NCBI GenBank assembly: GCA_003820375.1
Contig: RPQH01000008.1
Location: forward strand, 8,567-72,566
Origin: Ignavibacteriota bacterium
Lineage (GTDB): Bacteria; Bacteroidota; Ignavibacteria; Tepidaquicellales; OLB5
Direction: 5' to 3'
Length of the DNA: 64,000 nt
The notes beneath the pieces were generated by a model. It saw only the letters and a program-made list of their open reading frames with translations, made no database searches and was not told where the DNA came from. How positions within the stretch are numbered: the first letter of the stretch is position 1; every line of letters starts with the position of its first letter. The translations under genes and the position numbers were made by a program. Positions 5,118 through 64,000 of the stretch are shown here, piece by piece.

Positions 5118-5202
5118 AAATGAGGTGATTAGCAAAAGTTTTTTTAAGATACGTATAAGTTCTTTTTTTTAGAATAGCGTAAAAATACCTGATACTATAC
5201 AA

Positions 5203-6478: not shown

Positions 6479-6568
6479 ATTCCCGCGAAAGCGGGAATCT
6501 TAACAATGATACGGATGAACAAACGGACATGTCAATAGAGATAAAGAGATTCCCGCTTTCGCGGGAAT
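6479..6568. repeat. REP/MITE-like double-hairpin element
   Basis: attcccgcgaaagcgggaat (6479-6498) and its exact reverse complement attcccgctttcgcgggaat (6549-6568). Each arm is itself a 7-bp GC-rich hairpin. Confidence 0.8.
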
Positions 6569-8062: not shown

Positions 8063-8162
8063 TCTATCTTTAATTTTTCTTTTAATTTAACTGCTGTGTA
8101 TCCTGATTGAATAAAATTAATCTATCAGGGAATTTATAATTCCTTTTTGAAAGGATAGCAAC

Positions 8163-9374
8163 ATGAAAAATCTGTTTGCAGACAGAATGGAGAATGTCCC
8201 AGCATCTTTTATCCGTGAAATACTTAAATTCACACAAAGTAAAGATGTAATCTCTTTTGCAGGAGGGTTACCAAATCCTGCATTCTTTCCGGTTGAAGAT
8301 ATAAAAAAATCTGCTGTAAAAGTGCTGGAAGCCGATGGAACCAGGGTTTTGCAATATGCAGAAACCGAAGGCCATCTACCCTTAAGGGAATATATAAGCG
8401 ATTATATGCTGAGGAGAAAGAACCTTAAAGTACCTGTAGAAGAAATTCAAATCACAAACGGTTCACAGCAGGCAATAGCACTAATTTGTAAAACATTTCT
8501 TAACAAAGGTGAAACCGTAGTACTTGAAAGACCTTCGTACCTTGGTGCTATTCAGGCAATTTCATTTTATGAGCCTGAATTCCATACTGTTGAGCTTGAA
8601 GACGACGGCATAAATATAGAAGAGCTTGAAAGTACACTTGAAGCTCACCCGGCAAAATTATTTTACTCCGTTCCAAATTTTAATAACCCGTCTGGAATTA
8701 CCTGGTCACTTGAAAAAAGACAGGAAGTTGCAAGGATTCTATCTAACCATGAAATGATATATTTTGAAGATGACCCATATTACGAAGTACGGTATGAAGG
8801 CGAGCATTTACCTTCAGTAAAATCTTTTTACGATAAAAATGTAATATTAACAAGTTCATTTTCAAAAATGGTTGCTCCCGGTTTCAGAATAGGATGGATA
8901 TGTGCACAGAAAGACCTGATGGAAAAAATCGTAATATCAAAACAGGCTGCTGACCTGCAGCCGGGAACATTTGCTCAAAGAGTTCTGCACCAATACCTGA
9001 CAGATTACAATATAGAAAATCATCTTGTCAAGATAAGAGAAACTTACAAGAGGCAGAAAGATAAAATGGTAGAAATGATGAAGCAGGAGCTTCCGGAAGA
9101 AGTAAAATTTACGAATCCGCAGGGAGGAATGTTCCTTTGGGCAACCATGCCTGAAAATGCATCCTGCAGAGACGTGCTCAGTATTACCATTGAAAAGAAA
9201 GTAGTCTTTGTACCCGGTGATACATTTTACGTAGACGGCAAAGGATTTAATTGTATGAGGTTGAATTTCTCAAATTCACCGGAAGAGAAAATTGTAAAAG
9301 GTGTAAAAATATTAGCTGACGCCATGAAAGAAGTAATTGCCAAACATAATAAATTAAAAACTGTACCAGTTTAA
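8163..9374 (+). CDS. PLP-dependent aminotransferase, class I/II
   Basis: 403-aa ORF. SFSKMVAPGFRIGW is the PLP-lysine motif, and NPxG (NNPSG) is upstream. Confidence 0.85.
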   Translation: MKNLFADRMENVPASFIREILKFTQSKDVISFAGGLPNPAFFPVEDIKKSAVKVLEADGTRVLQYAETEGHLPLREYISDYMLRRKNLKVPVEEIQITNGSQQAIALICKTFLNKGETVVLERPSYLGAIQAISFYEPEFHTVELEDDGINIEELESTLEAHPAKLFYSVPNFNNPSGITWSLEKRQEVARILSNHEMIYFEDDPYYEVRYEGEHLPSVKSFYDKNVILTSSFSKMVAPGFRIGWICAQKDLMEKIVISKQAADLQPGTFAQRVLHQYLTDYNIENHLVKIRETYKRQKDKMVEMMKQELPEEVKFTNPQGGMFLWATMPENASCRDVLSITIEKKVVFVPGDTFYVDGKGFNCMRLNFSNSPEEKIVKGVKILADAMKEVIAKHNKLKTVPV

Positions 9375-9404
9375 AAAAGTTAAATTAAGAAAGGAAATCT
9401 TACA

Positions 9405-11702
9405 ATGATTCGCAAACAGGATGCATTAGATTACCATTCACAGGGAAGACATGGAAAAATAGAGGTTGTTTCTACTAAACCATGTGCAACTCAAAGAGAC
9501 CTGTCTTTGGCTTACACTCCGGGAGTTGCAGATCCGTGTAAAGAGATTGAAGCAAATCCGGATGATGCTTATCTGTATACTGCAAAAGGTAATCTTGTAG
9601 CAGTAATCAGTAACGGTACTGCAGTGCTGGGGCTTGGCGATATTGGAGCACTTGCAGGCAAACCTGTAATGGAAGGTAAAGGAGTTTTATTCAAAAGATT
9701 TGCTGATATTGATGTGTTCGATATAGAGCTGGACACTCATGACCCGGATGAGATAATTAAAGCTGTAAAGCTTCTTGAGCCGACATTCGGAGGCATTAAT
9801 CTGGAAGATATCAAAGCTCCGGAATGCTTCTACATCGAAGAAAAGCTGAAGGAAATTATGAAGATTCCTGTTTTCCATGATGACCAGCATGGTACAGCAA
9901 TTATAAGCGGTGCTGCTTTATTGAATTCATGTGAGATTACAAATAAGAAGATGGCTGAGATAAGAGTGGTTTTCAGCGGAGCCGGTGCTGCGGGTATTGC
10001 TTGTGCTAAGCTATATGAATCTCTTGGAGTGAAGCGTGAGAATATGATGCTTGTTGATACCAAAGGTATTGTGTACAAAGGCAGAAAAGAAGGCATGAAT
10101 AAATATAAAGAGTATTTTGCAGTTGAAACTGAAAAAAGAACTCTTGCTGATGCAATGAAGGGTGCTGATGTATTCTGCGGTGTCTCGGCTAAAGGTATAG
10201 TATCAAAAGAGATGATAAAATCAATGGCAGATTATCCTGTAGTTTTTGCAATGGCAAATCCTGACCCTGAAATTACATATGAAGATGCAACCAGTGCAAG
10301 AGACGATATAATTATGGCTACAGGACGCTCTGATTATCCAAACCAGGTTAACAATGTACTTGGATTCCCGTTCATTTTCAGGGGTGCTCTCGATGTTAGA
10401 GCAACAACTATCAATGAACCGATGAAGATTGCCGCTTCATATGCTCTTGCAAATCTGGCAAAAGAAGATGTTCCTGATTCTGTTATCCGTGTTTACGGCG
10501 GAAAGAGAATTGAATTCGGAAAGCACTATATTATTCCAAAGCCATTCGATCCGCGTGTACTGTTCTGGGAAGCTGCCGCTGTAGCAAAAGCTGCAATGGA
10601 TACAGGTGTTGCTCAGGTACCGTTAAAAGACATGGAGAAATATATTGACAGTCTTGAAGCACGTCTGGGCAAATCAAGGGAAGTTATGAGATTCTTCATA
10701 CATGAAGCACAGCACGGTCCGAAGAAGATAGTATTTCCAGAGGGTGAAGAAGACCATATCCTGCGTGCAGTACAGATTATTCTTGATGAAAAAATTGCCA
10801 AACCTATAGTACTGGGAAGCAGGACATTAATTAATGCAAGAATAAAAGAGCTTGGACTTGACCTGACAGGTGCTGAAATAATTAATCCTTCTAAATCCGA
10901 AAAGTATAACGAATATGCTTTGAAGTTCTATGATATAAGAAAAAGAAAAGGTATAACAAAAGCAGATGCCGACAGGATGACAAAGACGCATAACATTTTC
11001 GGAATGATGATGGTGCATGAAAATGATGCAGACGGTTTGATTTCAGGAGTAACACAGCATTACCCGGATACGGTAAGACCGGCATTGCAGATAATCGGTA
11101 AAGAAGATGGTGTTACAAATATTGCCGGCTTGTATATGATGGTATTCAAGAACCAGAATATTTTCATAACAGACCCGACAGTAAATATAGACCCATCAGT
11201 TGAACAGCTAGCCAGCATTGCACTACTCGCTGCTGAAAAGTTAAAGCAATTTGATATTGAACCGAGGATTGCAATGTTATCATTCAGTAATTTTGGAAGC
11301 ACAACTCACCCGCTATGCGAAAAAGTCCGTAAAGCAACAGAGCTTGTAAAGAAGATTGCCCCGGCACTTATTGTAGACGGTGAGATGATGGCTGATACAG
11401 CTACATCGACTGAAATATTGAATGATTTTTATCCGTTCTCTTCACTGCATGATAAAGCTAATTTACTTGTTTGTCCTGACCTTACATCTGCAAATATAGC
11501 TTACAAGCTGTTAGCTAATTTAGGCGGTGCTGTTGCAATCGGACCAATACTGCTTGGAATTAAAAAACCTGTTTACTTATTAGGTCCCGGTAATACTGTT
11601 AATGATATAGTAAACATTACAGCAATGGCAGTATATGAAGCACAGAGAAAGAGTACAGCATCAAAAGATACAACACGCAAGAAATTCGCGTTTTCAAATT
11701 AA
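9405..11702 (+). CDS. maeB: NADP-dependent malic enzyme (malic enzyme + PTA-like domain)
   Basis: 765-aa ORF. The N-terminal malic-enzyme/NAD(P)-binding part ([26 protein letters not shown]) is followed by a ~330-aa phosphate-acetyltransferase-like C-terminal domain. Confidence 0.9.
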
Positions 11703-12287: not shown

Positions 12288-12351
12288 CTGCCAGTGTTTC
12301 TCCTGGATGTTTTGTAATTATAGAATTAATAAAAATCGATGACACTGGCAG
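12288..12351. repeat. Long-loop hairpin of the CTGYCAGTGT family
   Basis: ctgccagtgt (12288-12297) pairs with acactggcag (12342-12351). A third direct copy, gtactgccagtgtcac, lies at 12152-12167. Confidence 0.6.
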
Positions 12352-12816
12352 AATATGGAAGTACAGGATCCTTTGTTATTTGAAGGAGGGTTAATCATAA
12401 ATCTTATTTAATAATATTCATCACCGGTTAATTGGAGTTTTCAAGGGGTATGCTGTTAATCTCAATCTGGAGTTGTTTATAAAAATAATTACATAATATC
12501 AGTTCATAATTATATATATCAGTAACACCTTGTCTGTGTTCAATTGTAAATCCTCCATTCATCTTAAGCTGACGCTTGCCTGCCTGCCTCAGGCAGGTGT
12601 CTGGTGAATTTTTGTTAATCTAAGTTCTTTCTTTCCCTATCATATTCATCAATTAATCTAAGCTAATCCACATTGTCAAACTAACACCTGACACTGCCCT
12701 GTAATTTTTCAACCTTCCAACCTGTCATTCTTCATTAATTATGACCCCTTGACTGTCTTCAATTATCAATCTTCACCTTTGCGGTCTTAGCGGCTTGGCG
12801 TGGTGGTATATCGGCA

Positions 12817-13467
12817 AAAATTCAGAGTTGGGTTCAAAACAGTGCTAAGTTGGGTTCAAGTTGTGTCGGAGTTGGTATCAAGTTGGTATCAAGTTGGGTT
12901 ATCGTTTTTGGAAAACAGGGGTTAACTCATAGCAGTATAAGCAAATAACTCCGTCAGAAATGTGAGATTTTTGATTTAAGATTTGCGATTTTGAGCCAGA
13001 ATCGCTAATTTTTCATCAAAAAAAAAACTTCACTATATCATTAACCATTATCGCTATGGGAAAAATTTGGTAGCAAATATTTGTCGCTGTTGTTGGGGAG
13101 TTAAAGTAATACTTGAAGTTCATCCGTTTCAATTCCTGACACACCCCTTCCGCTTCGCTCCCTCCCCTCTCGAGAGGGGAATTCTTACCTCTTTATTTAT
13201 CCATGAGCTGAAATTGCTCAAAAAAGCACACTAAACACTCAATACACTCTAAGCACTCCACACACTCCAAACTATTTTTAGTTAAAACTTGACAATAAGC
13301 AATTACTATATTAAATTATACTGATAGTGCTTATATAGCTATATAAGCATAAATAACCGTTCTTTGTTAATATCGAAATGATATAAAGCATGTCGTAATA
13401 TTGTTCGAAAATGCTGCTAACGGATTTGGTTAGATTTTGGAGGGTTCAAAAAAATATGCACTGAAAA
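12817..13467 (+). repeat. ~0.65-kb non-coding repeat, copy 1
   Basis: Aligns along its length with 32584-33223 in the same orientation. The first ~470 nt are very similar by eye and the last ~170 nt are patchy. The track shows no ORF of 60 aa or more. Confidence 0.9.
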
Positions 13468-13500
13468 GTGCATATATATGTAAATCTACCTATTGTTATA

Positions 13501-13530
13501 GCAGTAACACGGTTACTGCACTCCATACAC
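13501..13530 (+). repeat. 30-bp direct repeat, right copy
   Basis: Identical to 12115-12144. It abuts the stop of the TonB-dependent receptor gene. Confidence 0.9.
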
Positions 13531-26570: not shown

Positions 26571-26915
26571 GTGATAACAAGAAGAAATAGAAACTGGGAA
26601 GAAATGGCTGATCCTGCCGTTGTTAAAGAAATTGGAAATGCTTTAAAACAGATGCGGCTCAATGTAAACCTTTCTCAGGAACAGCTTGCAAAGAAATCCG
26701 GATTGGACAGAACTACAATAAGCCGTATAGAATCAGGCAGAGCTGCAACATTACTTTCACTGGTACAAATATTACGTGCATTAGATAAGCTAAACATAAT
26801 GAACATATTCGTTCAGGAACCGGAGATTAGTCCCATAAAATTATTAAAGCTTCAGGAAAAAAAACGTCAAAGAGCATATCACCATAAATCTAAAGAAACA
26901 GGAAACAATAAATGA
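26571..26915 (+). CDS. hipB: HipB-like XRE-family HTH antitoxin
   Basis: 114-aa ORF with an HTH (LSQEQLAKKSGLDRTTISRIESG). It overlaps hipA by 4 nt. Confidence 0.8.
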   Translation: MITRRNRNWEEMADPAVVKEIGNALKQMRLNVNLSQEQLAKKSGLDRTTISRIESGRAATLLSLVQILRALDKLNIMNIFVQEPEISPIKLLKLQEKKRQRAYHHKSKETGNNK

Positions 26916-28204
26916 ATACTGTTGCAAGAGTAAATATATGGGGTATGATGGTCGGGGCTATTGCGTGGCGTGATGAAACAGGATATGCAGTTTTTGAATT
27001 TGACCCTGACTTCATTAAAAAGGGAGTAAACTTAGCCCCATTAAAAATGCCATTAGAGGAAGCATTAAATGGAAGAATGATTTATTCATTCCCTGAATTA
27101 AATAATACTACATTTAAAGGATTACCGGGAATGTTGGTTGAAAGTTTGCCTGACAGATTTGGAAATACGATTATTGATGCATGGCTTGCACGCCGGGGAG
27201 GAGAACAAAATTTTAATTCTGTAGAAAGGTTATGTTATATTGGTAAAAGAGGGATGGGAGCTCTTGAGTTTGAACCGGTAATTCCGTTAATAGATGATGT
27301 TTCGGAATCAATTCAAATAAGTGAACTTGTTAACCTGACCAAAGAAATACTTAATGAAAGAAAAGATCTCGCTGTTAATATCCACGATGAAACAACAGAT
27401 GGATTATTGAAAATAATAAGAGTCGGAACATCGGCGGGAGGCAACAGAGCGAAAGCAATTATTGCATATAATGAAAACACCGGTGATGTCCGTTCCGGAC
27501 AGATTGACGGATTAAAGGACTATAGCTATTGGATTATAAAATTTGATGGTATTAATGATAAAGAATTAGGTGATCCGAAAGGTTATTGCAAAATTGAATA
27601 TGCATATTACCTTATGGCGACAGATTGCGGAATAATTATGACTGAATGTAAAACGCTGAATGAAAACCACCGCACTCACTTTATGACAAAAAGGTTTGAC
27701 CGTGACGGAATAAATAAGATTCATATGCAGTCTTTATGTTCGATAGCACATTTTGATTTCAACTTAGCAGGAGCATATTCGTATGAACAGGCATTTCAAA
27801 TAATGCGAAAGCTGAAACTGCAATATAGTGACCATGAACAATTGTACAGGAGAATGGTATTTAATGTAATAGCAAGAAATCAGGATGATCATACTAAGAA
27901 CATTTCTTTTCTAATGGATAAAGCAGGAAAATGGGGTTTATCACCTGCATATGATGTAACTTATGCTTACAACCCTGATAATATTTGGCTGCGTTCACAT
28001 CAAATGTCAATAAATGGAAAACGGGATGATATAACCGGGAATGATTTAATTGAAGTCGCTGAAAATATGAATATAAAAAAGCCGAAAGAAATTATACAGA
28101 TTGTTTTGGAAACGGTTTCCTGCTGGCGTGAGTATGCAAAAAAAGCAAATGTTAATGCAGAACATCAAAAAAAGATTTATAATGCTTTACAATTGAAAAT
28201 ATAG
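26912..28204 (+). CDS. hipA: HipA-family serine/threonine kinase toxin
   Basis: 430-aa ORF with the catalytic motif QDDHTKNISF and HipA N-terminal coupling-domain features. Confidence 0.9.
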   Translation: MNTVARVNIWGMMVGAIAWRDETGYAVFEFDPDFIKKGVNLAPLKMPLEEALNGRMIYSFPELNNTTFKGLPGMLVESLPDRFGNTIIDAWLARRGGEQNFNSVERLCYIGKRGMGALEFEPVIPLIDDVSESIQISELVNLTKEILNERKDLAVNIHDETTDGLLKIIRVGTSAGGNRAKAIIAYNENTGDVRSGQIDGLKDYSYWIIKFDGINDKELGDPKGYCKIEYAYYLMATDCGIIMTECKTLNENHRTHFMTKRFDRDGINKIHMQSLCSIAHFDFNLAGAYSYEQAFQIMRKLKLQYSDHEQLYRRMVFNVIARNQDDHTKNISFLMDKAGKWGLSPAYDVTYAYNPDNIWLRSHQMSINGKRDDITGNDLIEVAENMNIKKPKEIIQIVLETVSCWREYAKKANVNAEHQKKIYNALQLKI

Positions 28205-28520: not shown

Positions 28521-30287
28521 ATGGAGACAGATTTATTTATGAAAAGTTTCATCTTTTCACTGTTTATAATATTTATATATTCTATTCAATTTTATTGCCA
28601 ATGGCAACCGGATGTAAGATTAACAAATAATAATTATGGTTCCGGTACGTCTATAAACAATGCCAAAAATATAGCTTCTTATGGAAATATTATACATGTT
28701 GTTTGGAATGATGGACGTAATGGTTATGATGATATATATTATAAACGCTCAACAAATAGTGGTCTAAACTGGGGGGAAGACATAAGATTAACTACTGATC
28801 CAAACAGCTCACAGGGAGCTTCAATAGCTGTATCTAACCAATACGTGCATGTTGTATGGAGAGATTATAGAGATGGACATCATGAAATATATTATAAACG
28901 TTCAATCGATGGAGGTATAACATGGCAAACAGATGTTCGACTAACTAACACATTGTACGATTCTATGGATCCCTCTTTAGCATTATTGGATTCAGTCCTG
29001 CATGTAGTTTGGCACACTAATCGTGATGGAGGTCTGGAAATTTATTATAAAAAATCAACAAATAATGGGGTGAACTGGGGGGCAGATAATAGATTAACAA
29101 ACAATTCAGCAATTTCAGCCTATCCTTCAATTGTAGCATATGGTTCATATGTTCACGTTGCATGGTATGATGAACGTGACAATAATAAGGAGATATATTA
29201 TAAAAAATCAACCAATACCGGTATAAATTGGGAATCTGACTTAAGACTAACCTATGACACAGCGAACTCGATGTATTCATCTATATCAGCGTCAGGCAAT
29301 AACATCTTTGTTGCTTGGGGTGATAATAGAAATGGGAACTATGAGATATATGGTATAAAGTCGACCAATAATGGCATTAACTGGTCAAATGATATTAGGT
29401 TAACTAATAATTCCAGTATCTCCAATTTTCCCAATATTGTAATTTCAGATAATATTTTTCATGTCGTGTGGCATGATTTCAGGGATGGAAATTACGAAAT
29501 ATATTATAAACGATCTACTAGTGCCGGTTTAAACTGGGAGTCAGATTACAGGTTAACAAATGCTTCTGATATTTCAGAATTTGCATCAGTATGCTTATTA
29601 AATACATCTGTAAATATAGTTTGGATGGATTATAGGGATAATAATCCGGAAATTTATTATAAACAAAACCCAACAGGTAATATAATAGTGATACCGCCAC
29701 CTGCACCAAATCTTATAGCTCCTCTAAATAATTCGACCGGACAATCATTAACACCATTGATGGATTGGGGAGATGTAACAAGCGCTATAAGTTACAGAAT
29801 CCAGATAACAACAACTGATTCTACAGCATTTTCAACAACAGTTTTTGATTCAAGTGGTATTACATCATCACAAGTTACAGTACCTTCAGGAAAACTTCAA
29901 AATAATACAAAGTATTGGTGGAGAGTTAATGCTCAAAATGCAGCAGGTGCCGGTCCGTGGTCAGTTGTTTGGAATTTTAGAACATTATTTTTAGGAATAG
30001 TAAAGGATAATGAAATACCTAAAGAATTTAAGCTATATCAGAATTATCCAAATCCCTTCAATCCAACAACACAAATTGAGTTTTCTATTCCCAAAAACAA
30101 TATTCATGTCAATATAATAGTATATGATGTATCAGGAAAAATTGTATCTATATTAGTAAATGAAAAACTAAATGCAGGTACTTATAAAGTAGATTTTAAT
30201 GGAGAAAGTTTAGCAAGCGGGGTTTGTTTTTACAAACTGGAAACTGAAGGATTTGTTGAGACGAAAAGAATGGTAATTTTAAAATAA
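28521..30287 (+). CDS. Secreted BNR/Asp-box repeat protein with FN3-like and T9SS C-terminal sorting domains
   Basis: 588-aa ORF with a signal peptide (probable start M7 at 28539). About 7 repeats of YYK[RK]S.N.G.NW follow, then a C-terminal NYPNPFNP..YDVSGK T9SS domain. Confidence 0.8.
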   Translation: METDLFMKSFIFSLFIIFIYSIQFYCQWQPDVRLTNNNYGSGTSINNAKNIASYGNIIHVVWNDGRNGYDDIYYKRSTNSGLNWGEDIRLTTDPNSSQGASIAVSNQYVHVVWRDYRDGHHEIYYKRSIDGGITWQTDVRLTNTLYDSMDPSLALLDSVLHVVWHTNRDGGLEIYYKKSTNNGVNWGADNRLTNNSAISAYPSIVAYGSYVHVAWYDERDNNKEIYYKKSTNTGINWESDLRLTYDTANSMYSSISASGNNIFVAWGDNRNGNYEIYGIKSTNNGINWSNDIRLTNNSSISNFPNIVISDNIFHVVWHDFRDGNYEIYYKRSTSAGLNWESDYRLTNASDISEFASVCLLNTSVNIVWMDYRDNNPEIYYKQNPTGNIIVIPPPAPNLIAPLNNSTGQSLTPLMDWGDVTSAISYRIQITTTDSTAFSTTVFDSSGITSSQVTVPSGKLQNNTKYWWRVNAQNAAGAGPWSVVWNFRTLFLGIVKDNEIPKEFKLYQNYPNPFNPTTQIEFSIPKNNIHVNIIVYDVSGKIVSILVNEKLNAGTYKVDFNGESLASGVCFYKLETEGFVETKRMVILK

Positions 30288-31259: not shown

Positions 31260-32495
31260 TCACTTTACCAGCACCATACGTCTCGTTTTCATGTAACTGC
31301 CTGCTTTAATCGTATAAAGATATATTCCGCTTGGATAATTTGATGCATCCCATATAATAGAGTAACTCCCTGCATTTCGCATCTGATTTACTAATACAGC
31401 AATTTCTCTTCCCATAACATCATATATAGAAAGCTTAACATCACTGCTCATTGCTAATTGATAATTGATAATTGTTACAGGATTAAACGGATTGGGGTAA
31501 TTCTGATACAGTTCGTAATCTAATGGAATATTATTGCTGACAGGTTCTATTCCTGTTTGTGTTCCGCCATTGGTTGATTTATATATTGTACCTGTTCCTG
31601 TATTTGATGCAGCTGCAAGCCAGCCGGTGCTCTGGTTTATAAAATCAACCGAATTAAAAGCTGTATTATTTAAATTAAATTGCACGGTCCATGTGTTGCC
31701 GCCATTGGTGGATTTGGAAACACCGCCAATTCCCGTACCTGAAGTTCCTGCAAGCCACCCGGTATTATTATCTATAAAATGAATTGAATTAAATCCATTA
31801 CCACTCATAGTATATTGTGTATTCCACGTATTTCCACCGTTTGTGGATTTAAAAATCCTGCCAAAACCGGAGCTTGATTTTGTTGCTAACCAGCCCGTGT
31901 TCTGGTTTATAAAGAAAACTGAATTAAATGCTGTATCAATTAAAACATATTGTGAATTCCATGTGTTACCGCCATTGGTGGATTTTTCTATTTCGCCTAT
32001 AAATCCCGAACTTGATATATTTGTCCTCCATCCTGTATTTTGGTCAATAAAGTAAACCGAAGTAACGGTGTAAGATGCCCATAATTGAATGGTCCAGGTG
32101 TTTCCACCGTTTGTAGATTTATATAATCCACCGGTTCCATTGCCCGATTTAGTTGCTAACCAGCCTGTACTTTGATTAAGAAAGAAAACCGATTTAAAAG
32201 CAGTATCTGTAGAAAAACACAGTGTATTCCATGTATTTCCACCGTTTGTAGATTTATATAATGTTCCCGTACTTGTACCTGATGAGACAGCAAGCCATCC
32301 GGTATTTATATCAATAAAGTGTACTGAATTAAATGATGCATTATTTGAAGTGTACTGTACTGTCCATTGACTGTATAAAATTGTTACCTGAAATAAAACG
32401 AACAATGATAAAAGTACCTTTGCGGCAGGTTTCATAATTTCTGTATTAATAAAATTTATTATGGTGAGCTGCAATATAAATTGATTTTTCATCAA
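31260..32495 (-). CDS. Secreted BNR/Ycf48-like propeller-repeat protein with T9SS C-terminal domain
   Basis: 411-aa ORF (probable start MKPAAKV at 32435). It has 7 repeats of KSTNGGNTW and a C-terminal NYPNPFNP domain. Confidence 0.8.
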   Translation of the reverse strand: MMKNQFILQLTIINFINTEIMKPAAKVLLSLFVLFQVTILYSQWTVQYTSNNASFNSVHFIDINTGWLAVSSGTSTGTLYKSTNGGNTWNTLCFSTDTAFKSVFFLNQSTGWLATKSGNGTGGLYKSTNGGNTWTIQLWASYTVTSVYFIDQNTGWRTNISSSGFIGEIEKSTNGGNTWNSQYVLIDTAFNSVFFINQNTGWLATKSSSGFGRIFKSTNGGNTWNTQYTMSGNGFNSIHFIDNNTGWLAGTSGTGIGGVSKSTNGGNTWTVQFNLNNTAFNSVDFINQSTGWLAAASNTGTGTIYKSTNGGTQTGIEPVSNNIPLDYELYQNYPNPFNPVTIINYQLAMSSDVKLSIYDVMGREIAVLVNQMRNAGSYSIIWDASNYPSGIYLYTIKAGSYMKTRRMVLVK

Positions 32496-32583
32496 TATAT
32501 ATTCACTTAAATTTTATACTCAAATAATTTATTGGGAATCATTATAGTGACAAATCCTGCATTTTTACTGACAATTTTTCTCT

Positions 32584-33223
32584 AAAATCAGAGTTGGGTT
32601 CAAAACAAGTCGGAGATGGGTTAAAGTTGTGTCGGAGTTGGGTTCAAGTTGGTATCAAGTTGGGTTATCGTTTATCAAAAACAGGGGTTAACTCATTGCA
32701 GTATAAGGAGATAACGCCGTCAGAAATGCGAGATTTTTGATTTAAGATTTGCGATTTTGAGCCGGAATAGCCAATTTTTCATCAAAAAAAAACTTCACTA
32801 TATCATTAACCATTATCGCTATGGGAAAAATTTGGCAGCAAATATTTGTCGCTGATGTTGGAGAGTTAAAGTATTACTTGAAGGTATTTCCGGTTCATTA
32901 TCAAACACACCCCTTCCGCTTCGCTCCCTCCCCTCTCGAGAGGGAAATCCTTACCTCTTTATTTATCTATTGATTAAAATTGCTTAAAAAGCACTCTAAA
33001 CACTCTATACACACTAAGCATTCTATACACACCAATCTATTTTTAAATAAAACTTGACAAACACAAATATCGTAAATACATTTGTATAGTGATAAATATT
33101 ATCACTTAATACAGTTCTTTAATAATATAGAGATGGTTTACAGCATGTCGTAATATAGCTGTAAAATGATGCTCACGAATTTGGTTAGATTTTGAAATGT
33201 TGAAAAAAATATGCACTGAAAAA
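32584..33223 (+). repeat. ~0.65-kb non-coding repeat, copy 2
   Basis: Colinear with 12817-13467. It begins 88 nt upstream of the minus-strand T9SS gene start. Confidence 0.9.
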
Positions 33224-33234
33224 TACCCTAAGGA

Positions 33235-33360
33235 CAATTAGCAATGAACAATTAGCAATGAACAATTAGCAATGAACAATGAGCAATGAACAATTAGCAA
33301 TGAACAATGAACAATGAACAATAAGCAATGAACAATGATCAATGAACAATTATCAATGAA
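33235..33360. repeat. Heptamer tandem array (18 units of CAATNRN)
   Basis: caattag caatgaa alternation with variants caatgag, caataag, caatgat and caattat. Confidence 0.9.
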
Positions 33361-33659
33361 GAGCTTAAGAGCCGGAAGTGAAGAGTAGATGATATATAGT
33401 GAATAAATAATGACTCCGGGTGTGTTCTATTGAAAATCCTGCAAATCTGTCTGCCTTTGGTGGAAGCTTCGGCGCAGGGAGGATCTTCGACTTACCTCGC
33501 ATAGACGCCCAACTCAAGACTCCTGGTTCACGACTCATTTTATACACCTGTATATTTTTTTTATACGGTTTTCGTTATTTCTCTTTTTTTTAATTATCTT
33601 CATACCGCAAAATTCTACTTAAATGCACATTTTGTTGAATCTGACAGGTAATTCTGATA

Positions 33660-33675
33660 TGGCACGGCAATTGCT
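33660..33675 (+). promoter_or_regulatory. Sigma-54 (-24/-12) promoter
   Basis: TGGCACGGCAATTGCT matches TGGCAC-N5-TTGCW exactly. It lies 44 nt upstream of ATG 33719, with an aaaggaga RBS in between. Confidence 0.75.
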
Positions 33676-33718
33676 TTAGTTATATACAGAATTAAAAACC
33701 AAAGGAGAACACAAAAAA

Positions 33719-34897
33719 ATGATTACCGAAAAAATATTAGTAGTAGACGATGAAGCAACAGTCTGCTCAAGCATACAAAAAATATTAACCAAAAGAGGTT
33801 ATTCAGTAGATAACTCATTGAATGCGGATGACGCAATATTAAAAATAAAAAATAATAAATTTGACCTCGTAATAACAGATTTAATGATGCCGGGAACAGA
33901 TGGAATGGAACTGCTCCAGATTATTAAACAGCATTATCCTGAGCTTGATGTTATCGTTATTACCGGTTATGCATCAATAGATACAGCAGTAAAAGCAACA
34001 AAGCTGGGAGCAATGGATTACCTTCCAAAGCCGTTTACCCCTGAAGAGCTCACCGAGATAACCAAAAGAGCTATAGAAAAGAGGAAAATGAATGTATCAA
34101 AAAAAGCTGAACCGAAGTCAAAGATAAAACCGGCTTTGAAAAAGAATGACAACATCGATATAGATATGCCGTTCAGCGAAAGTGAAGTTGAATCTCACAC
34201 TTCAAAAGAGTTTGTTGATAAGCTTTCAAGGTCCGATATTCCCCAGCAAAAGAAACCTGCAAAGAAAACCGAATTCTGCAATTCCGGACAGCGTGAATGC
34301 AGACGCCTTGTACTTGAAGGAAGAGAATGCACCGGTGAATGCCCGATAGTAAAGAAAGAAAGAGAAAGAGCAGCTAAAGCAACAGGAAAAACATTTGTTC
34401 ATACTGACGATATAATTGATGTGGATATGCCATTCAACTATTCAGAAGTTGAAAGAATTATGGGAAGCGATTACATTAACTGCATGGACAGGTCTGAAAT
34501 ACCGAGAGCCGGGTTATTCGGAAGAGATTCAAATGCAAAGCATAATGTGCTTGTTGTTGACGACGAACCGATAGTATGCCACAGCTTAAGGAAAATATTG
34601 ACAAAGCAATCATGCTCAGTTGAAGAAGCATTCGATGTTGATGCAGCACTTTTGAAAATGAGACTGAACAAATACGACCTAATATTCTTAGACCTCAAGA
34701 TGCCAAAAAGCGATGGCATGGAACTGTTGAAGTCAATAAAGAATCTTTACCCCGAAATTCCTGTAGTTATGATATCGGGTTATGCATCAATCAAGACGGC
34801 AGTAGAAGCAACCAGAGAAGGTGCATTCAACTTTATTCCCAAGCCGTTTACACCCGAAGAGCTTAAAGTTGTAACCAGAGAAGCACTGGCTGCATAA
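33719..34897 (+). CDS. Dual-receiver response regulator (REC-linker-REC) with Cys-rich linker
   Basis: 392-aa ORF with two receiver domains (VVDDE...DLMMPG; VVDDE...DLKMPK). The linker carries the duplicated motif D[IV]DMPF..SEVE...RS[DE]IP and C-x6-C-x9-C-x3-C. Confidence 0.85.
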   Translation: MITEKILVVDDEATVCSSIQKILTKRGYSVDNSLNADDAILKIKNNKFDLVITDLMMPGTDGMELLQIIKQHYPELDVIVITGYASIDTAVKATKLGAMDYLPKPFTPEELTEITKRAIEKRKMNVSKKAEPKSKIKPALKKNDNIDIDMPFSESEVESHTSKEFVDKLSRSDIPQQKKPAKKTEFCNSGQRECRRLVLEGRECTGECPIVKKERERAAKATGKTFVHTDDIIDVDMPFNYSEVERIMGSDYINCMDRSEIPRAGLFGRDSNAKHNVLVVDDEPIVCHSLRKILTKQSCSVEEAFDVDAALLKMRLNKYDLIFLDLKMPKSDGMELLKSIKNLYPEIPVVMISGYASIKTAVEATREGAFNFIPKPFTPEELKVVTREALAA

Positions 34898-58930: not shown

Positions 58931-60589
58931 CTATTTTATTAAAACCAACTTCCTTGTTTCAACAAACTCCCCTGCTTGCAATGAATAAAAATACACACCG
59001 CTTGCAAAATCTCCTGCATTCCAATCAACTTCGTGAATGCCTGCTTCCAGCTTACCGTTTATAAGGGTTGCTACTTCTCTTCCGGTTATATCATAAATTT
59101 TCAATACCACATGTTCCACCCCCCTTGCCCCCCTTTTAGGGGGGATTGAAAAGCGGATGCGGGTTGATGGATTGAAGGGATTGGGATAGTTTTGTGATAA
59201 TTCAAATCTATCAGGTATGTGCGTTGAGCTTGGGTTTGTTCCCACAAACTGAGAATATTTTATTGTTGTGAGCCCCTGTACACTGCTACCTGACACAAAT
59301 ACATTATTAAATTTATCTAAACCAAGAAAGTTCGCATAATCCGTCGATGAATTACTCGGGCTGTTATATATTTGCAGCCATTGCTGAACTCCGGATGAGT
59401 TATATTTAATTGTTGTATAATCCCATCCTGAACCACTTCCGGGTCTGGGACTATTATCACTGAAACCTGTTACATACACGTTATCGTATTTATCAATTTT
59501 TATTGACGAAGGTATATCCAAATTATTATAAGGGTCGTTATACCTCTGTACCCATTGCTGCACTCCGGATGAGTTATATTTAATTGTAGCGAAGTCCCTT
59601 TGTGTACCGGTACCTGTGCTATAGCCAGTTATATATACATTACTGCTGCTATCTACAGCTATTGAAGTGGCCTTATCTTCATATGCGCCTCCGGGTGAAA
59701 AGTATTTTTGGGTCCATATAGAATCACCTGATGAATTGTATTTAATCGTTACAAAATGGGAATTATAACTACTCCCTGTGCAACCGCCGGTTACATAAAT
59801 ATTACCAAGTTTATCCAAAGCTATTGATGTTGTCTCATCAAACCAATTTCCTGTACCATTATATCTTCTTACCCACTGCTCAACACCTGATGAATTATAC
59901 TTTATCGTACAATAATCATTGGATAAGCTATCGATCCAACAGCTTGAACCTGTTATATATACATTACCTAGTCTATCCAGTACTAAAGCAATAGCTCCGT
60001 TAAACTTTTGATAATCATCTATACTGCCTGTATATCTTGTTTCCCATTGTTTCACTCCGGAAGTATTGTATTTTATTGTAACACAATCATATCCTGTATA
60101 ATTATCACCCACACTTTGTCCTGTCACATATGTATTTCCTGAGTCATCGGTTTTAAGTGAAAACGCAATGTCAATTGAATTTCCTGAACCATTGTAAATT
60201 TGTACCCATTGCAGTATACCTGAGGAACTATATTTTATTGTGCAGTAATCACTTGTAGTATAATAAGAATTCCAATTAGTCACACCTGTAATATAAACGT
60301 TACCCCATTTATCCACATCAATTGAATAACCAATATCCATATAGCTGTAAGTACCGTTATATGTCTTTACCCATTGAAGTACACCTGAGGAATTATATTT
60401 AATTGTTATTATATCATGCGAATCTATTAGCCAGCATACTCCAGTAATATATACATTTCCTGAATCATCAATTGCACCTGTATTTGCACTGCTGTTTGGA
60501 TATATTGCCGCCCATTCCTGTGTTACCTGTGCAAGTGATATATTTATTGTACAAAATGAAATAAATAAATAAGTAAAAATCTTTTTCAT
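58931..60589 (-). CDS. Secreted SBBP beta-propeller-repeat protein with T9SS C-terminal domain
   Basis: 552-aa ORF with a signal peptide, ~9 repeats of ..NVY[IV]TG....D[YF].T[IV]KYN.SGV.QW, and a C-terminal NYPNPFNPST domain. Confidence 0.8.
   Translation of the reverse strand: MKKIFTYLFISFCTINISLAQVTQEWAAIYPNSSANTGAIDDSGNVYITGVCWLIDSHDIITIKYNSSGVLQWVKTYNGTYSYMDIGYSIDVDKWGNVYITGVTNWNSYYTTSDYCTIKYSSSGILQWVQIYNGSGNSIDIAFSLKTDDSGNTYVTGQSVGDNYTGYDCVTIKYNTSGVKQWETRYTGSIDDYQKFNGAIALVLDRLGNVYITGSSCWIDSLSNDYCTIKYNSSGVEQWVRRYNGTGNWFDETTSIALDKLGNIYVTGGCTGSSYNSHFVTIKYNSSGDSIWTQKYFSPGGAYEDKATSIAVDSSSNVYITGYSTGTGTQRDFATIKYNSSGVQQWVQRYNDPYNNLDIPSSIKIDKYDNVYVTGFSDNSPRPGSGSGWDYTTIKYNSSGVQQWLQIYNSPSNSSTDYANFLGLDKFNNVFVSGSSVQGLTTIKYSQFVGTNPSSTHIPDRFELSQNYPNPFNPSTRIRFSIPPKRGARGVEHVVLKIYDITGREVATLINGKLEAGIHEVDWNAGDFASGVYFYSLQAGEFVETRKLVLIK
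59115..59146. repeat. GC-rich palindrome embedded in-frame in the T9SS domain
   Basis: cccccc-tttta-gggggg (59128-59144), preceded by a C-run. It encodes PPKRGARGVEH. Confidence 0.75.
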
Positions 60590-60600
60590 GATGTTTTCTT

Positions 60601-62244
60601 TTATTTAAGTAAAACTAATTTCTTCGTATCAATCACTACTCCATCTGAAATCAATGAATAGAAATACACACCGCTTGCAAAATCTCCTGCATTCCAATCA
60701 ACTTCATGTGTGCCGGGAGTGAGCTTATCATTTATGAGAATCGCAACTTCCCTGCCAAGTATATCAAAGATTTTCAGGGACACTATCCCCCCTTTACCAA
60801 AGGGGGGACTAAGGGGGGTTTCCGGAATTTCAAACTTTATCTTTGTTGATGGATTGAATGGATTGGGATAGTTTTGTGATAATTCAAATCTATCCGGTAT
60901 GTTAGATGAGATTGGATTTGCACCAACAAACTGTGAATATTTTATTGTTACCAATTTTCTATTATAATTATTATATAAATGACTCGTCCCGGTTACATAT
61001 ACATTACCTGTTTTATCGATTGCCATTGAAGTTGCTACATCTACAGAGGTGGAATCACCATTATAAATTTGCGCCCATTGTAGGATACCTGATGAATTAA
61101 ATTTCACTGTGCAAAAGTCATTAATAGTATTAGTGGAAGATAATAATCCTGTTAAATAAATATTCCCCAACTTATCCATTGAACTGGCAAGTGGCTTACC
61201 AGATCCATAAAATGTAGGTGCATTATATACAGCAACCCATTGCTGAACACCTGATGTGTTATATTTGACTGTAGCGTAGCCGCGTTCTCCCTGTATTGAA
61301 ACGTTATTCCCCGATACATATGCGTTACCCAGCGTATCTACTATCATAGTAGATGCAATATCAGACATATTAGCTGGATCTTTGTACAATTTCACCCATT
61401 GTTGTACTCCGGACTTATCATATTTAATTGTACAATAATCAAATCCTATTTGACCGAGGCTTCCTCCAGTTACATAAACATTGCTATTAAAATCAACACC
61501 AATAGCATAGGTATTTTCCCAACTCGAATCATATATCCTAGCCCATTGAAAAACACCTGATGAATTGTATTTAACTGTACAATAGTCATAATAATTATTA
61601 TTAAAACCGCAGCTACCGCATATAAATACATTACCTGCGGTATCTATTGCTAATGCAGTACTCCATTCATTACCTATAATATCGTATGGTTGTGCCCATT
61701 GCTGAACACCTGATGTGTTATACTTAATAGTGTAAAATCCACGACCGGATGCAAGGCTATAACTATCTCCTGCTACATATATATTTCCTTTTTTGTCTAT
61801 TTTTACATCAGTAGGCCAATCCGAATTATTACCTGGTCCGTTAAATCTTTGTACCCACTGTTGAATACCCGAAGAATTGTATTTTATAGTACAGAAATCC
61901 TCCATTGTCCCTATACCAATACTGCTTCCTGTTACATATATATTACCGGATTTATCAATTGCCATAGCTGTTACCTTATCGGCTGAATCAGCCGGTGAAT
62001 TATAATATGTTACCCATTGCTGAATACCTGATGGACTGTATTTAATAATACAGTAGTCTGTTTGAGTACCCGGATTTATTTTACTGCATGATATATATAT
62101 ATTTCCCGCAGAGTCAGTTACTAAAAATGCATTATCAGAAGATAATGGTCCATTGAATATTTGTAACCACTCCTGTGTTACCTGTGCAAGTGATATATTT
62201 ATTGTACAAAATGAAATAAATAAATAAGTAAAAATCTTTTTCAT
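60601..62244 (-). CDS. Secreted SBBP beta-propeller-repeat protein with T9SS C-terminal domain (paralog)
   Basis: 547-aa ORF with the same repeat type. Its first 26 residues are identical to those of 58931-60589. Confidence 0.8.
   Translation of the reverse strand: MKKIFTYLFISFCTINISLAQVTQEWLQIFNGPLSSDNAFLVTDSAGNIYISCSKINPGTQTDYCIIKYSPSGIQQWVTYYNSPADSADKVTAMAIDKSGNIYVTGSSIGIGTMEDFCTIKYNSSGIQQWVQRFNGPGNNSDWPTDVKIDKKGNIYVAGDSYSLASGRGFYTIKYNTSGVQQWAQPYDIIGNEWSTALAIDTAGNVFICGSCGFNNNYYDYCTVKYNSSGVFQWARIYDSSWENTYAIGVDFNSNVYVTGGSLGQIGFDYCTIKYDKSGVQQWVKLYKDPANMSDIASTMIVDTLGNAYVSGNNVSIQGERGYATVKYNTSGVQQWVAVYNAPTFYGSGKPLASSMDKLGNIYLTGLLSSTNTINDFCTVKFNSSGILQWAQIYNGDSTSVDVATSMAIDKTGNVYVTGTSHLYNNYNRKLVTIKYSQFVGANPISSNIPDRFELSQNYPNPFNPSTKIKFEIPETPLSPPFGKGGIVSLKIFDILGREVAILINDKLTPGTHEVDWNAGDFASGVYFYSLISDGVVIDTKKLVLLK
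60785..60822. repeat. GC-rich palindrome embedded in-frame in the T9SS domain (variant)
   Basis: cccccc-tttaccaaa-gggggg followed by actaagggggg. It encodes ETPLSPPFGKGGI. Confidence 0.75.
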
Positions 62245-62255
62245 GATGTTTTCTT

Positions 62256-64000
62256 TTATTTAAGTAAAATAAGTTTCTTTGTATCAATCACCACACCATC
62301 AGCAATTAATGAATAAAAATACACACCGCTTGCAAAATCTCCTGCATTCCATTCCACTTCATGCGTGCCTGCTTCAAGATTGCCGTTTATAAGGGTTGCT
62401 GCTTCTCTTCCGGTTATATCATAAATTTTCAATACCACATGTTCCACCCCCCTTGCCCCCCTTATAGGGGGGATTGAAAAACTAATGTGAGTGGATGGAT
62501 TGAAGGGATTGGGATAGTTTTGAGAAAGAGAAAAATTTTCAGGTATTTTATTATTTGTATTAATGTTGCCAGTAATTCCATTAAATAGTATTCGCCAGAC
62601 ACTATAATTCGTACCCGTTACCAGGTAACCATTATTTACACTGAATGAATATGCGCTTAAATTTGGAGGTAAGTCATTATTCAAAGAAATCCAGTTTATT
62701 CCATTGTTTGTTGAATAGTAAATACCGTGAGATTCAGTGCCCGCAAATACAGTATTGCTATACACATAAAGTGATTTAACTCTTTGCTTTGTTAAACTTG
62801 TTGAGATCCAATTTTGTCCATTATCATATGAAATACTTATTCCGGTACTTCCTCCGGCATAAATAATATTATTATTGGCAGCTATCGCCCATATATATTG
62901 ATTGTTTAAAACTGGTTGACTCCAATTTGTCCCATTGTTTGATGATATAAATAATCCTGTACTGGTACCTGCAAATACATTACTATTATTTGCTGCAAGT
63001 GAATAAACAGATTGAAATTGACCTGTTGATATCCAATTTACTCCATTATTAGTAGAACGATTTACCTGGTGATAGTCACCTGCAAAAACATCATTACCTT
63101 TAATTTTCAGTGAATGAACAGGAGTGCTTAAAGCTGTTTTAGACCAGTTTATACCGTTATTTGTTGAAATATATACACCAACATGGCTAAATGTATCAGA
63201 TGCCCATACACCTGCATATAAATTATTACCGTTGACTGCAAATGAAGAAACATCATAATCAAAATTTAACGGATACCAGTTTGCTCCATAATCAGATGAC
63301 CTGTATGTTGCTCCAATAAAGGATAAACCTGAAGCAGCAAACATGTAATTATCTTTTGATACAATAGAATTTACAGTCCGGAAATTCATACTTGTTTGTA
63401 CCCAATTCTGACCGTTATTAGATGACTTTAAAACGCCTAATTGGGATGAGCCGGCTAAAATAGTATTGTTCACAGGTAATAAAGCATAGAAGCTGTTATA
63501 ATTAATATTATTCTGAGTCCAGTTTAAGCCATTGTTAGTTGAGACAAATAGTCCGGAATAATTTGTTCCTGCGATAATATTATTATCGATTGGAATTACA
63601 CTATTAACATTTTTATCGATTAAACCAAGTGGTATCCAATTTTCACAGTAATTTGTAGAATATAATAATCCATGCGTATTGGTTCCTGCAAGAATCCTAC
63701 TTCCATAATCAACAAGTGTGTTAATATCACTAATATAATAGTTAACAGGAATCCAGTTTGCTCCATTATTTGATGAACGGAATGTACCCCCACCTGTTCC
63801 CTGAAAAAGATATTCATCTTTTACCAACAAAGAATGAATCTCATAAAACGATTGACCTTGAGTCCAATTTAATCCGTAATCTGTTGATATATAAAATCCA
63901 TTACCTCCGGCAAATACATAATTATTTTTTATTGCTATAGAAAATATATATAGATTATTAACGCTTGTCTGAATCCAGTTTGAACCATTATTTGTGGATA
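62256..64000 (-). CDS. Secreted BNR/Ycf48-like repeat protein with T9SS C-terminal domain; 5' end beyond the window
   Basis: The frame stays open upstream of the track's Met (63830) to the window edge (..STNNGSNWIQTS..). It has many S.NNG.NW repeats and a C-terminal NYPNPFNPST domain. Confidence 0.8.
   Translation of the reverse strand, partial: STNNGSNWIQTSVNNLYIFSIAIKNNYVFAGGNGFYISTDYGLNWTQGQSFYEIHSLLVKDEYLFQGTGGGTFRSSNNGANWIPVNYYISDINTLVDYGSRILAGTNTHGLLYSTNYCENWIPLGLIDKNVNSVIPIDNNIIAGTNYSGLFVSTNNGLNWTQNNINYNSFYALLPVNNTILAGSSQLGVLKSSNNGQNWVQTSMNFRTVNSIVSKDNYMFAASGLSFIGATYRSSDYGANWYPLNFDYDVSSFAVNGNNLYAGVWASDTFSHVGVYISTNNGINWSKTALSTPVHSLKIKGNDVFAGDYHQVNRSTNNGVNWISTGQFQSVYSLAANNSNVFAGTSTGLFISSNNGTNWSQPVLNNQYIWAIAANNNIIYAGGSTGISISYDNGQNWISTSLTKQRVKSLYVYSNTVFAGTESHGIYYSTNNGINWISLNNDLPPNLSAYSFSVNNGYLVTGTNYSVWRILFNGITGNINTNNKIPENFSLSQNYPNPFNPSTHISFSIPPIRGARGVEHVVLKIYDITGREAATLINGNLEAGTHEVEWNAGDFASGVYFYSLIADGVVIDTKKLILLK
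62445..62474. repeat. GC-rich palindrome embedded in-frame in the T9SS domain
   Basis: cccccc-ttata-gggggg (62456-62472). It encodes PPIRGARGVEH. Confidence 0.75.

Follow-up and report, generated by a model that had tools for sequence, protein, structure and literature searches.

The nearest known system to the one described here is that of the Rickettsia palindromic elements, repeats of about 100–150 bp that lie in frame inside open reading frames (ORFs) (Ogata et al., 2000; reviewed in PMC10969869). Repetitive extragenic palindromic (REP) elements and REPINs (REP doublets forming hairpins) are short GC-rich palindromes located outside genes and mobilised by REP-associated tyrosine transposases (RAYTs) (PMC3116915). 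In characterised type IX secretion systems (T9SS), the type A sorting domain serves as an export tag and is cleaved after translocation (PMC8545088; PMC5053529). Here we analyse a 64,000-nucleotide stretch of the metagenome-assembled genome (MAG) of an Ignavibacteriota bacterium (assembly GCA_003820375.1, contig RPQH01000008.1, positions 8567–72566), referred to below as the window, in which three neighbouring T9SS cargo genes contain, at the same loop of the sorting domain, short in-frame hairpins built of runs of six C and six G (C6/G6 units). An earlier reading of the bare sequence (the original prediction) had pointed to these palindromes and to the Rickettsia elements as their precedent. 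Our results suggest that REP-like hairpins have probably been captured in a disposable, length-tolerant loop and have spread by recombination among paralogous tags.

Three Hairpin Units in Adjacent T9SS Cargo Genes

The three host genes are all located on the minus strand. Gene 1 (58931–60589; RPI19150.1, 552 aa) and gene 2 (60601–62244; RPI19151.1, 547 aa) encode T9SS cargo proteins with SBBP beta-propellers, and gene 3 (62256–63830), an ORF of 524 aa, encodes a BNR/sortilin-like T9SS cargo protein. Their sorting domains, which make up the last ~90 residues of the host proteins, are encoded at 58934–59215, 60604–60897 and 62259–62543, respectively. In a clustering of about 15 billion sequences at 90% identity, RPI19150.1 and RPI19151.1 remain singletons.

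A search with the pattern CCCCCC-N3-12-GGGGGG revealed three matches in the window, at 59128–59144, 60787–60807 and 62456–62472, versus 0.00 expected from 100 dinucleotide-preserving shuffles of the same 64 kb. All three palindromes of the original prediction were recovered in this way, and the insert peptides it had listed, PPKRGARGVEH, (P)ETPLSPPFGKGGI and PPIRGARGVEH, proved correct on translation. Neither a relaxed C5/G5 pattern nor a general scan for short GC-rich hairpins added a further site in the 64-kb window, where the number of intergenic C6/G6 copies is zero. Since shuffled sequences are expected to give no match and the same phenomenon recurs in many independent assemblies and samples (see below), chance or an assembly artefact can be dismissed for practical purposes.

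Besides the palindrome, each unit contains a third homopolymer run (59119–59124, 60813–60818 and 62447–62452), so that the layout C6-spacer-C6-loop-G6 is asymmetric and the units have a length of 26–32 nt. Unit 1 (59119–59144; CCCCCC-TTG-CCCCCC-TTTTA-GGGGGG) has its canonical orientation on the plus strand and is read on the minus strand, in gene 1, as P-PKRGARG. Unit 3 (62447–62472, plus strand; CCCCCC-TTG-CCCCCC-TTATA-GGGGGG), which is read as P-PIRGARG in gene 3, differs from it by a single base of the loop, the stems being intact in both. Unit 2 (60787–60818, minus strand; CCCCCC-TTAGT-CCCCCC-TTTGGTAAA-GGGGGG) has the same layout in the opposite orientation, although the host genes share a strand, and is read as TPLSPPFGKGG in gene 2. 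The predicted stability of the three units ranges from −13 to −19 kcal/mol. Searches of Rfam, with the region at a permissive E-value and with the whole window at the gathering score, gave nothing relevant.

Among related copies in other assemblies, every one of the three reading frames is used (CCC CCT; CCC CCC; ACC CCC CTT). An Ignavibacteriaceae MAG (locus L008) contains a full four-arm nested hairpin of ~48 nt and −38 kcal/mol, located in the loop between the first two strands of the domain and having the structure AACCCCCC-TTCGT-CCCCCC-loop-GGGGGG-AAACA-GGGGGG-TTA. Because the units occur in both orientations and in three reading frames, it is the DNA unit that is conserved and not the peptide. 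The possibility of a conserved peptide insert was considered and rejected: the insert is absent from many domains and its peptide changes with frame and orientation. Domains with and without the insert, whose comparison had been proposed in the original prediction, clearly do not show universal conservation at the protein level with non-palindromic codons.

The position of the inserts, which had been placed between the first two beta-strands of the domain, was confirmed by a structural model, and profile matches identified the hosts as T9SS type A sorting domains. The AlphaFold2 model of the gene 1 domain, based on 73 aligned sequences, has a mean pLDDT (predicted local distance difference test) of 84 and seven strands, with beta1 at residues 17–24, PPKRGARG at residues 25–32 and beta2 at residues 33–41. 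Foldseek matched the modelled domain to Ig-like sandwiches, including the solved sorting domain of mirolase (8qb1), and a sequence search of PDB found no solved relative. The scores against PF18962 (Por_Secre_tail; gathering cut-off 27 bits) are 33.4, 27.5 and 26.2 bits for genes 1, 2 and 3, so that gene 3, with its insert present, falls just under the cut-off. Against TIGR04183 (cut-off 23 bits) genes 1 and 2 score 41.3 and 27.3 bits and gene 3 has no match. Genes of the T9SS machinery (SprA/PorV/PorU) are absent from the annotated part of the window.

As was also noted in the original prediction, the two other T9SS domains of the window have a short loop at this place: PKNNIH (30090–30107, plus strand; GC content 0.28) in the gene at 28521–30287, and AMSSD (31440–31454, minus strand; GC content 0.47) in the gene at 31260–32495. 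It should be mentioned that a toxin-antitoxin pair, consisting of a HipB-like helix-turn-helix gene and a HipA kinase gene (26571–28204), is located just upstream of an unfilled T9SS cargo gene.

The Beta1-Beta2 Loop as a Hotspot of Hairpin Sequences

A search with the sorting domain of gene 1 yielded 2953 relatives, of which the best 120, annotated as Ignavibacteria, Melioribacteraceae and similar, were taken. Among them 109 loops could be parsed; 58 had five residues, and the remainder had 7–20 residues and fell into recurring peptide types. For the analysis of DNA we assembled a sample of 792 kb comprising the window, L008, four loci obtained via individual hits and 80 metagenome loci (L001–L154 denote fetched DNA loci, and P-numbers such as P0001 and P0031 denote proteins of sorting-domain relatives). 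The sample was chosen around sorting domains, and the intergenic counts given below hold for this sample and not genome-wide.

In total, 168 sorting domains were found in the 792 kb; the loop had five residues in 111 of them and at least seven in 55. Most of the long loops are GC-rich hairpins, with a GC content of about 0.55–0.67 versus 0.39 in the flanks, and several have weak or no hairpin potential (z near 0). At least eight unrelated hairpin families occupy the loop in these 168 domains: the C/G-run units, CCCCTCTCGAGAGGGG with or without CTGGGGGTGTG, GTAGAGACGGGGCATGCCCCGTCTCTAC, GTAGGTGTCGCATTGAATGCGACCTCTAC, ATTCCAGCGAAGGCTGGAAT, TCTCCCCCTGCAAGGGGGAGA, CCCTTCTCCAAAGGAGAAGGG and CCCCTCCTTAATCAAGGAGGGG. 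Like the C6/G6 unit, the family of CCCCTCTCGAGAGGGG plus CTGGGGGTGTG was found in both orientations, as was the family of CCCCTCTC, which is read as APLSRGAGGVL in one orientation and as AEHTPNPLSRGEN in the other. Families differ by 0–2 codons in where the unit begins with respect to the conserved Pro codon.

The frequency of long loops is not accounted for by the bait used in the search: among bystander domains, present in the flanks of the fetched loci and not used as bait, 20 of 84 (24%) have long loops. The length variation is concentrated in this one segment. Loops exceeding the modal length by four residues or more make up 34% of the cases between beta1 and beta2, compared with 0.7%, 6.4% and 2.1% in the other three segments of the domain, where insertions are mostly ordinary variants without hairpins (rare hairpin exceptions were found in L136 and L147). 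A de novo census of perfect 8-bp stems with a GC content of at least 0.6 gave 2.06 hairpins per kb in the sorting-domain loops versus 0.023 per kb in other long ORFs, i.e., hairpins are about 90 times denser in the loops than in other coding DNA; one of the 16 hairpins assigned to other long ORFs lies in a sorting-domain loop missed by the regular expression. In ORF-free DNA the density was 0.475 per kb, and many of these hairpins precede T-runs and probably act as terminators.

Thus, the suggestion of the original prediction that a REP-like element is tolerated in a surface loop gained support: inserts are missing from about two thirds of the related domains, and those present are palindromic DNA found in both orientations and in three frames. 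A selected function of the hairpins, be it a translation-pausing mRNA structure, an mRNA-stability element, a recombination signal or a Gly/Pro/Arg-rich loop tuning recognition by the T9SS, would agree with the recurrence of their position across many genomes and with the intact stems of units 1 and 3, where the loop alone differs. We regard it as improbable, since only about one quarter to one third of the domains have an insert and neighbours at the same locus lack it, the peptide depends on frame and orientation, the predicted stabilities of the window units are modest, and the long loops with z near 0 fit decay. A role in termination was considered separately and rejected: no T-run (U-tract in the transcript) follows the window hairpins, so they are not terminators.

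Some loops contain composite inserts, in which one hairpin is nested in or lies beside another (L127:4252–4296; L154:1617–1673 and 5155–5211). Examples are CCCCTCTCGAGAGGGG-TGTCCGGCTCTGCCGGAC-GGGGTGTG and an insert in which CCCTCACCCC...GGGTGAGG surround two inner hairpins (−42 kcal/mol). Such inserts suggest repeated hits on an already filled loop. In L122, a Peptidase_S8 gene (7294–9765) is followed, after a gap of 235 nt, by a 148-aa ORF (10001–10447) that contains only a sorting domain with a hairpin of GTAGAGAC; this pair may represent a single cargo gene that has been split or frameshifted.

Probable Spread of the Units With Sorting-Domain Cassettes

The bodies of genes 1 and 3 are unrelated, and their DNA becomes alignable from the start of the sorting domain. 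Within it, a tract of about 98 nt that includes the unit (approximately 59055–59152, minus strand) has two differences from the corresponding part of gene 3 (62383–62480). In the coding sense it begins 8 nt 5' of the unit, and the 16 nt that precede it contain six differences. The unit itself has one difference in 33 nt, while the identity of the flanks is 84%. On this evidence the tract may be read as a conversion or cassette-copy tract. Similar traces are seen at the ends of the genes. The signal peptides of genes 1 and 2 (MKKIFTYLFISFCTINISLAQVTQEW) are identical, as is the DNA upstream of these genes (60530–60600 versus 62185–62255), and genes 2 and 3 have in common their 3' ends (60601–60680 versus 62256–62330), the downstream intergenic DNA and the signal peptide of the next gene. 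The three-gene array is a mosaic, with duplicated end segments around diverged bodies.

A comparison of the near-identical strains represented by L126 and L129 (97.9% identity over 7.6 kb) demonstrated that 106 of their 172 differences fall within three sorting-domain segments. In one of these, a patch of ~200 nt has 56 differences and the unit is swapped for its flipped form; another has a loop with a 24-nt indel plus substitutions, and the third is a patch of 21 substitutions. Cargo genes thus apparently swap their sorting-domain cassettes within short periods of time. In pairs of domains from the same locus, the flanks are 0.80 identical when the unit is the same and 0.70 identical in different-unit or filled/empty pairs (Mann-Whitney p = 5e-4, n = 6 versus 65; 0.66 in empty/empty pairs). 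Units are therefore inherited together with their flanks. Taken together, the shared ~98-nt tract, the patches in L126 and L129 and the similarity of the flanks of identical units make it more likely that the hairpin was copied along with its cassette than that it transposed independently many times.

Stand-alone ORFs that consist of a sorting domain and have neither a signal peptide nor a passenger were also found, among them P0031 (87 aa, in 29 contigs) and P0001 in L123; some of these contigs are very long. ORFs of this kind, with lengths of 87–119 aa, were observed at L123:8873–9160 and L123:10001–10360 and as P0031, P0040 and P0069, one of them having toxin-antitoxin genes on either side. 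Such ORFs may represent remnants or else silent cassettes that serve as donors.

If hairpins were inserted actively, a trans-acting enzyme (a RAYT or IS200-like single-strand transposase, or similar) would use the loop as its landing pad. This would explain the ~90-fold enrichment over other coding DNA, the presence of at least eight unrelated hairpins in both orientations in one loop, the location of all three C6/G6 copies of the window in sorting domains with none in intergenic DNA, and the higher conservation of the units of genes 1 and 3 than of their flanks. A highly conserved stretch of DNA (encoding QNYPNPFNP) is located about 40 nt upstream, and one hairpin family has GTAG...CTAC ends, which are typical of REPs. 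Nevertheless, we consider such targeting unlikely. A scan of 20 window ORFs detected no transposase, including a RAYT; units of different families begin at positions that vary by 0–2 codons with respect to the conserved Pro codon; hairpins are sometimes found in other loops of the domain, as in L136 and L147; the near-identity of genes 1 and 3 spans the ~98-nt tract and thus extends beyond the unit; and the flanks of domains with the same unit are alike. It seems likewise unlikely that the loop is actively used in a wider sense, either through hairpins targeted by an enzyme or through hairpins acting as recombination hotspots that swap cassettes between cargo genes and the stand-alone ORFs devoid of signal peptides, in the manner of silent cassettes.

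The original prediction had further proposed that slipped-strand mispairing in the C6/G6 runs toggles the sorting signal and thereby cargo secretion. Each gene has three homopolymer runs, and a slip by ±1 in any of the nine runs would, as modelled in silico, truncate the protein within 0–18 residues with loss of beta2–beta7; this part of the proposal, the predicted loss of the sorting signal, holds. Switching itself received no support from our data. All nine runs are exactly 6 nt long, while contingency tracts that switch at useful rates usually have 7–8 nt or more. Most other hairpin families of the loop contain no homopolymers, no frameshifting difference in run length separates L126 from L129 (a single strain comparison), and frameshifted cargo would pile up in the periplasm and not be switched off cleanly. 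Phase variation thus seems highly improbable.

Intergenic and Cross-Phylum Relatives of the Hairpins

To find relatives of the inserts, all of them were compared by BLAST with the 792-kb sample, which gave 116 matches in other sorting-domain loops and about 10 elsewhere. The genuine cases among the latter are two non-coding copies of the CCCCTCTCGAGAGGGG core, a common insert of sorting-domain loops in related genomes, on the plus strand of the window, at 13162–13179 and 32928–32944. They lie inside the two copies of a ~180-nt repeat (13080–13260 and 32846–33026; 92% identity) that contains CACACCCC...CCCCTCTCGAGAGGGG. The core ATTCCCGC-GAAA-GCGGGAAT was found in frame in a sorting-domain loop (L129:8559–8578), in intergenic DNA (L128:16078–16097) and in the window as an intergenic inverted doublet. 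The two parts of this doublet, ATTCCCGCGAAAGCGGGAAT (6479–6498) and ATTCCCGCTTTCGCGGGAAT (6549–6568), are separated by 50 nt in a REPIN-like layout and are located between two genes of the pyruvate:ferredoxin oxidoreductase type. Since the ATTCCCGC-GAAA-GCGGGAAT and CCCCTCTCGAGAGGGG families both have copies outside genes, at least two of the loop families are ordinary intergenic REP-like repeats of this clade as well.

The two copies of the ~180-nt repeat belong to two ORF-free, repeat-rich stretches of ~1.2 kb each (~12350–13530 and ~32500–33720), which have no match in Rfam. The same stretches contain 22-nt repeats (TCAGAGTTGGGTTCAA...) and a tandem array of about 12 copies of the 14-nt sequence AACAATTAGCAATG (33191–33374).

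A nested hairpin of nearly constant sequence, C6-TTAAT-C6-loop-G6-ATTAA-G6, recurs far beyond the clade. A permissive search of genome contigs with a C6/G6 nested-hairpin pattern revealed at least 120 loci in cyanobacteria, Nitrospirota, Poribacteria, Planctomycetota, Chloroflexota, Ignavibacteriota and others; the 120 loci listed are mostly cyanobacterial intergenic copies. As a rule, the nested hairpin is located outside long open frames (e.g., L012:5594–5634; L080:994–1033; L115:4217–4257), and among the 120 matches listed only the Ignavibacteriaceae copy (L008) lies inside a sorting domain. Its distribution may reflect either a shared mobile element or convergence. In Microcystis we observed head-to-tail arrays of the 37-nt sequence CCCCCCTTAGTCCCCCCTTGATAAGGGGGGTGCCGAT, with 12 copies at L017:6482–6808 (and more beyond) and three copies at L066:3413–3516; this 37-nt unit is the three-run hairpin unit repeated in tandem without spacers. 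Searches of the available literature, in which literal sequence strings were included, found no account of hairpin repeats in T9SS sorting domains and none that prints the cross-phylum unit.

Proposed Origin and Spread of the Inserts

The specific finding, i.e., the presence of palindromic DNA units at one loop of the sorting domain, is solid and generalises unexpectedly, and the mechanism behind it is most likely passive. It can be hypothesized that a hairpin is captured on rare occasions from intergenic REP-like repeats into the beta1-beta2 loop and that only in-frame versions survive. As the tag would be cut off after export, the 6–9 extra residues of the loop would be neutral, and hence cost-free, for the mature protein. 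The captured unit would then multiply mainly passively, being carried along with the DNA of the sorting domain. This DNA, the most repeated coding sequence here, would be copied from one cargo gene into another through duplication of cassettes and gene conversion, and a capture, though rare, could last and increase in number, the cassette being part of a very large family of recombining paralogues. To explain the data, about eight captures, independent of one another, would suffice in the course of the clade's history. The two orientations are most simply explained as two three-arm decay products of a symmetric four-arm palindrome or as two cassette lineages.

Several observations weigh against capture followed by passive spread. 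In the generic hairpin census, the enrichment of the loops over ORF-free DNA is only about fourfold, and at least eight unrelated hairpins in one loop are a lot for tolerance alone. With no intergenic C6/G6 copy in the window, the source of this family is not seen there. No donor of the flipped tract of L129 is present in the fetched DNA, where the best candidate is 86% identical. For the window genes no empty-site orthologue was obtained, a search with full-length gene 1 giving none above 53% identity; in the sample the best filled/empty pairs have flanks only 69–78% identical. Finally, that the tag is cleaved in Ignavibacteriota is an extrapolation from Porphyromonas and Flavobacterium.

Capture of REP-like hairpins with subsequent passive spread, which we regard as the probable explanation, would make the loop of a discarded secretion tag a specific and recurrent harbour for selfish hairpin DNA within coding sequence. 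The loops, of 5 to more than 20 residues and of arbitrary sequence, show, in the manner of a mutational scan performed by nature, what the T9SS signal can accommodate, and they provide a means of studying how REP-like repeats spread where transposition is not obvious. There are also consequences for annotation. Because the inserts lower profile hidden Markov model (HMM) scores, as illustrated by gene 3 and the Pfam cut-off, T9SS cargo of Ignavibacteriota-type genomes can escape detection, and the odd G/P/R-rich peptides of the loop are not to be taken for functional motifs.

Comparison With Known Systems

By HMM match, C-terminal position and Ig-like fold (TIGR04183/PF18962; 8qb1), the domains that host the hairpins are regular members of the T9SS type A family. 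They depart from the typical type A domain in that about one quarter to one third of those of the Ignavibacteriota type have a beta1-beta2 extension encoded by a hairpin. With homopolymer contingency loci the C6/G6 units share G/C tracts inside an ORF and the loss of function predicted in silico upon a slip; they differ in that their tracts have just 6 nt and are part of a hairpin repeat.

Like intragenic MITEs (transposable elements of the miniature inverted-repeat type) and small repeats of the ERIC (enterobacterial repetitive intergenic consensus) or BOX type, the units are small non-autonomous repeats able to make in-frame fusions (PMC10969869). They are much shorter, however, and neither terminal inverted repeats around the core nor a target-site duplication was identified, the closest empty-site partner having 78% flank identity. 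To REPs and REPINs they are related by being short imperfect GC-rich palindromes, by the intergenic inverted doublet of one family (6479–6568) and by the GTAG...CTAC ends of another. On the other hand, many extragenic copies and inverted doublets, the hallmark of REPs, are found for the ATTCCCGC family alone and not for the C6/G6 unit, which has no intergenic copy in the 64-kb window and seems to spread along with the host cassette.

The closest resemblance is to the Rickettsia palindromic elements, which are likewise palindromic repeats of selfish type, inserted in frame inside genes and tolerated owing to positions compatible with the protein surface. The Rickettsia elements, however, specify a peptide segment that is conserved and occur dispersed among genes unrelated to one another, whereas units of the window type have 26–48 nt, can be read in whichever frame or orientation and cluster at one loop of a single domain family, which, by analogy with characterised systems, would be discarded after export. 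What is new here, therefore, is the concentration of in-frame REP-like repeats in a single loop of a presumably disposable secretion tag, with which, as a cassette, they appear to spread.

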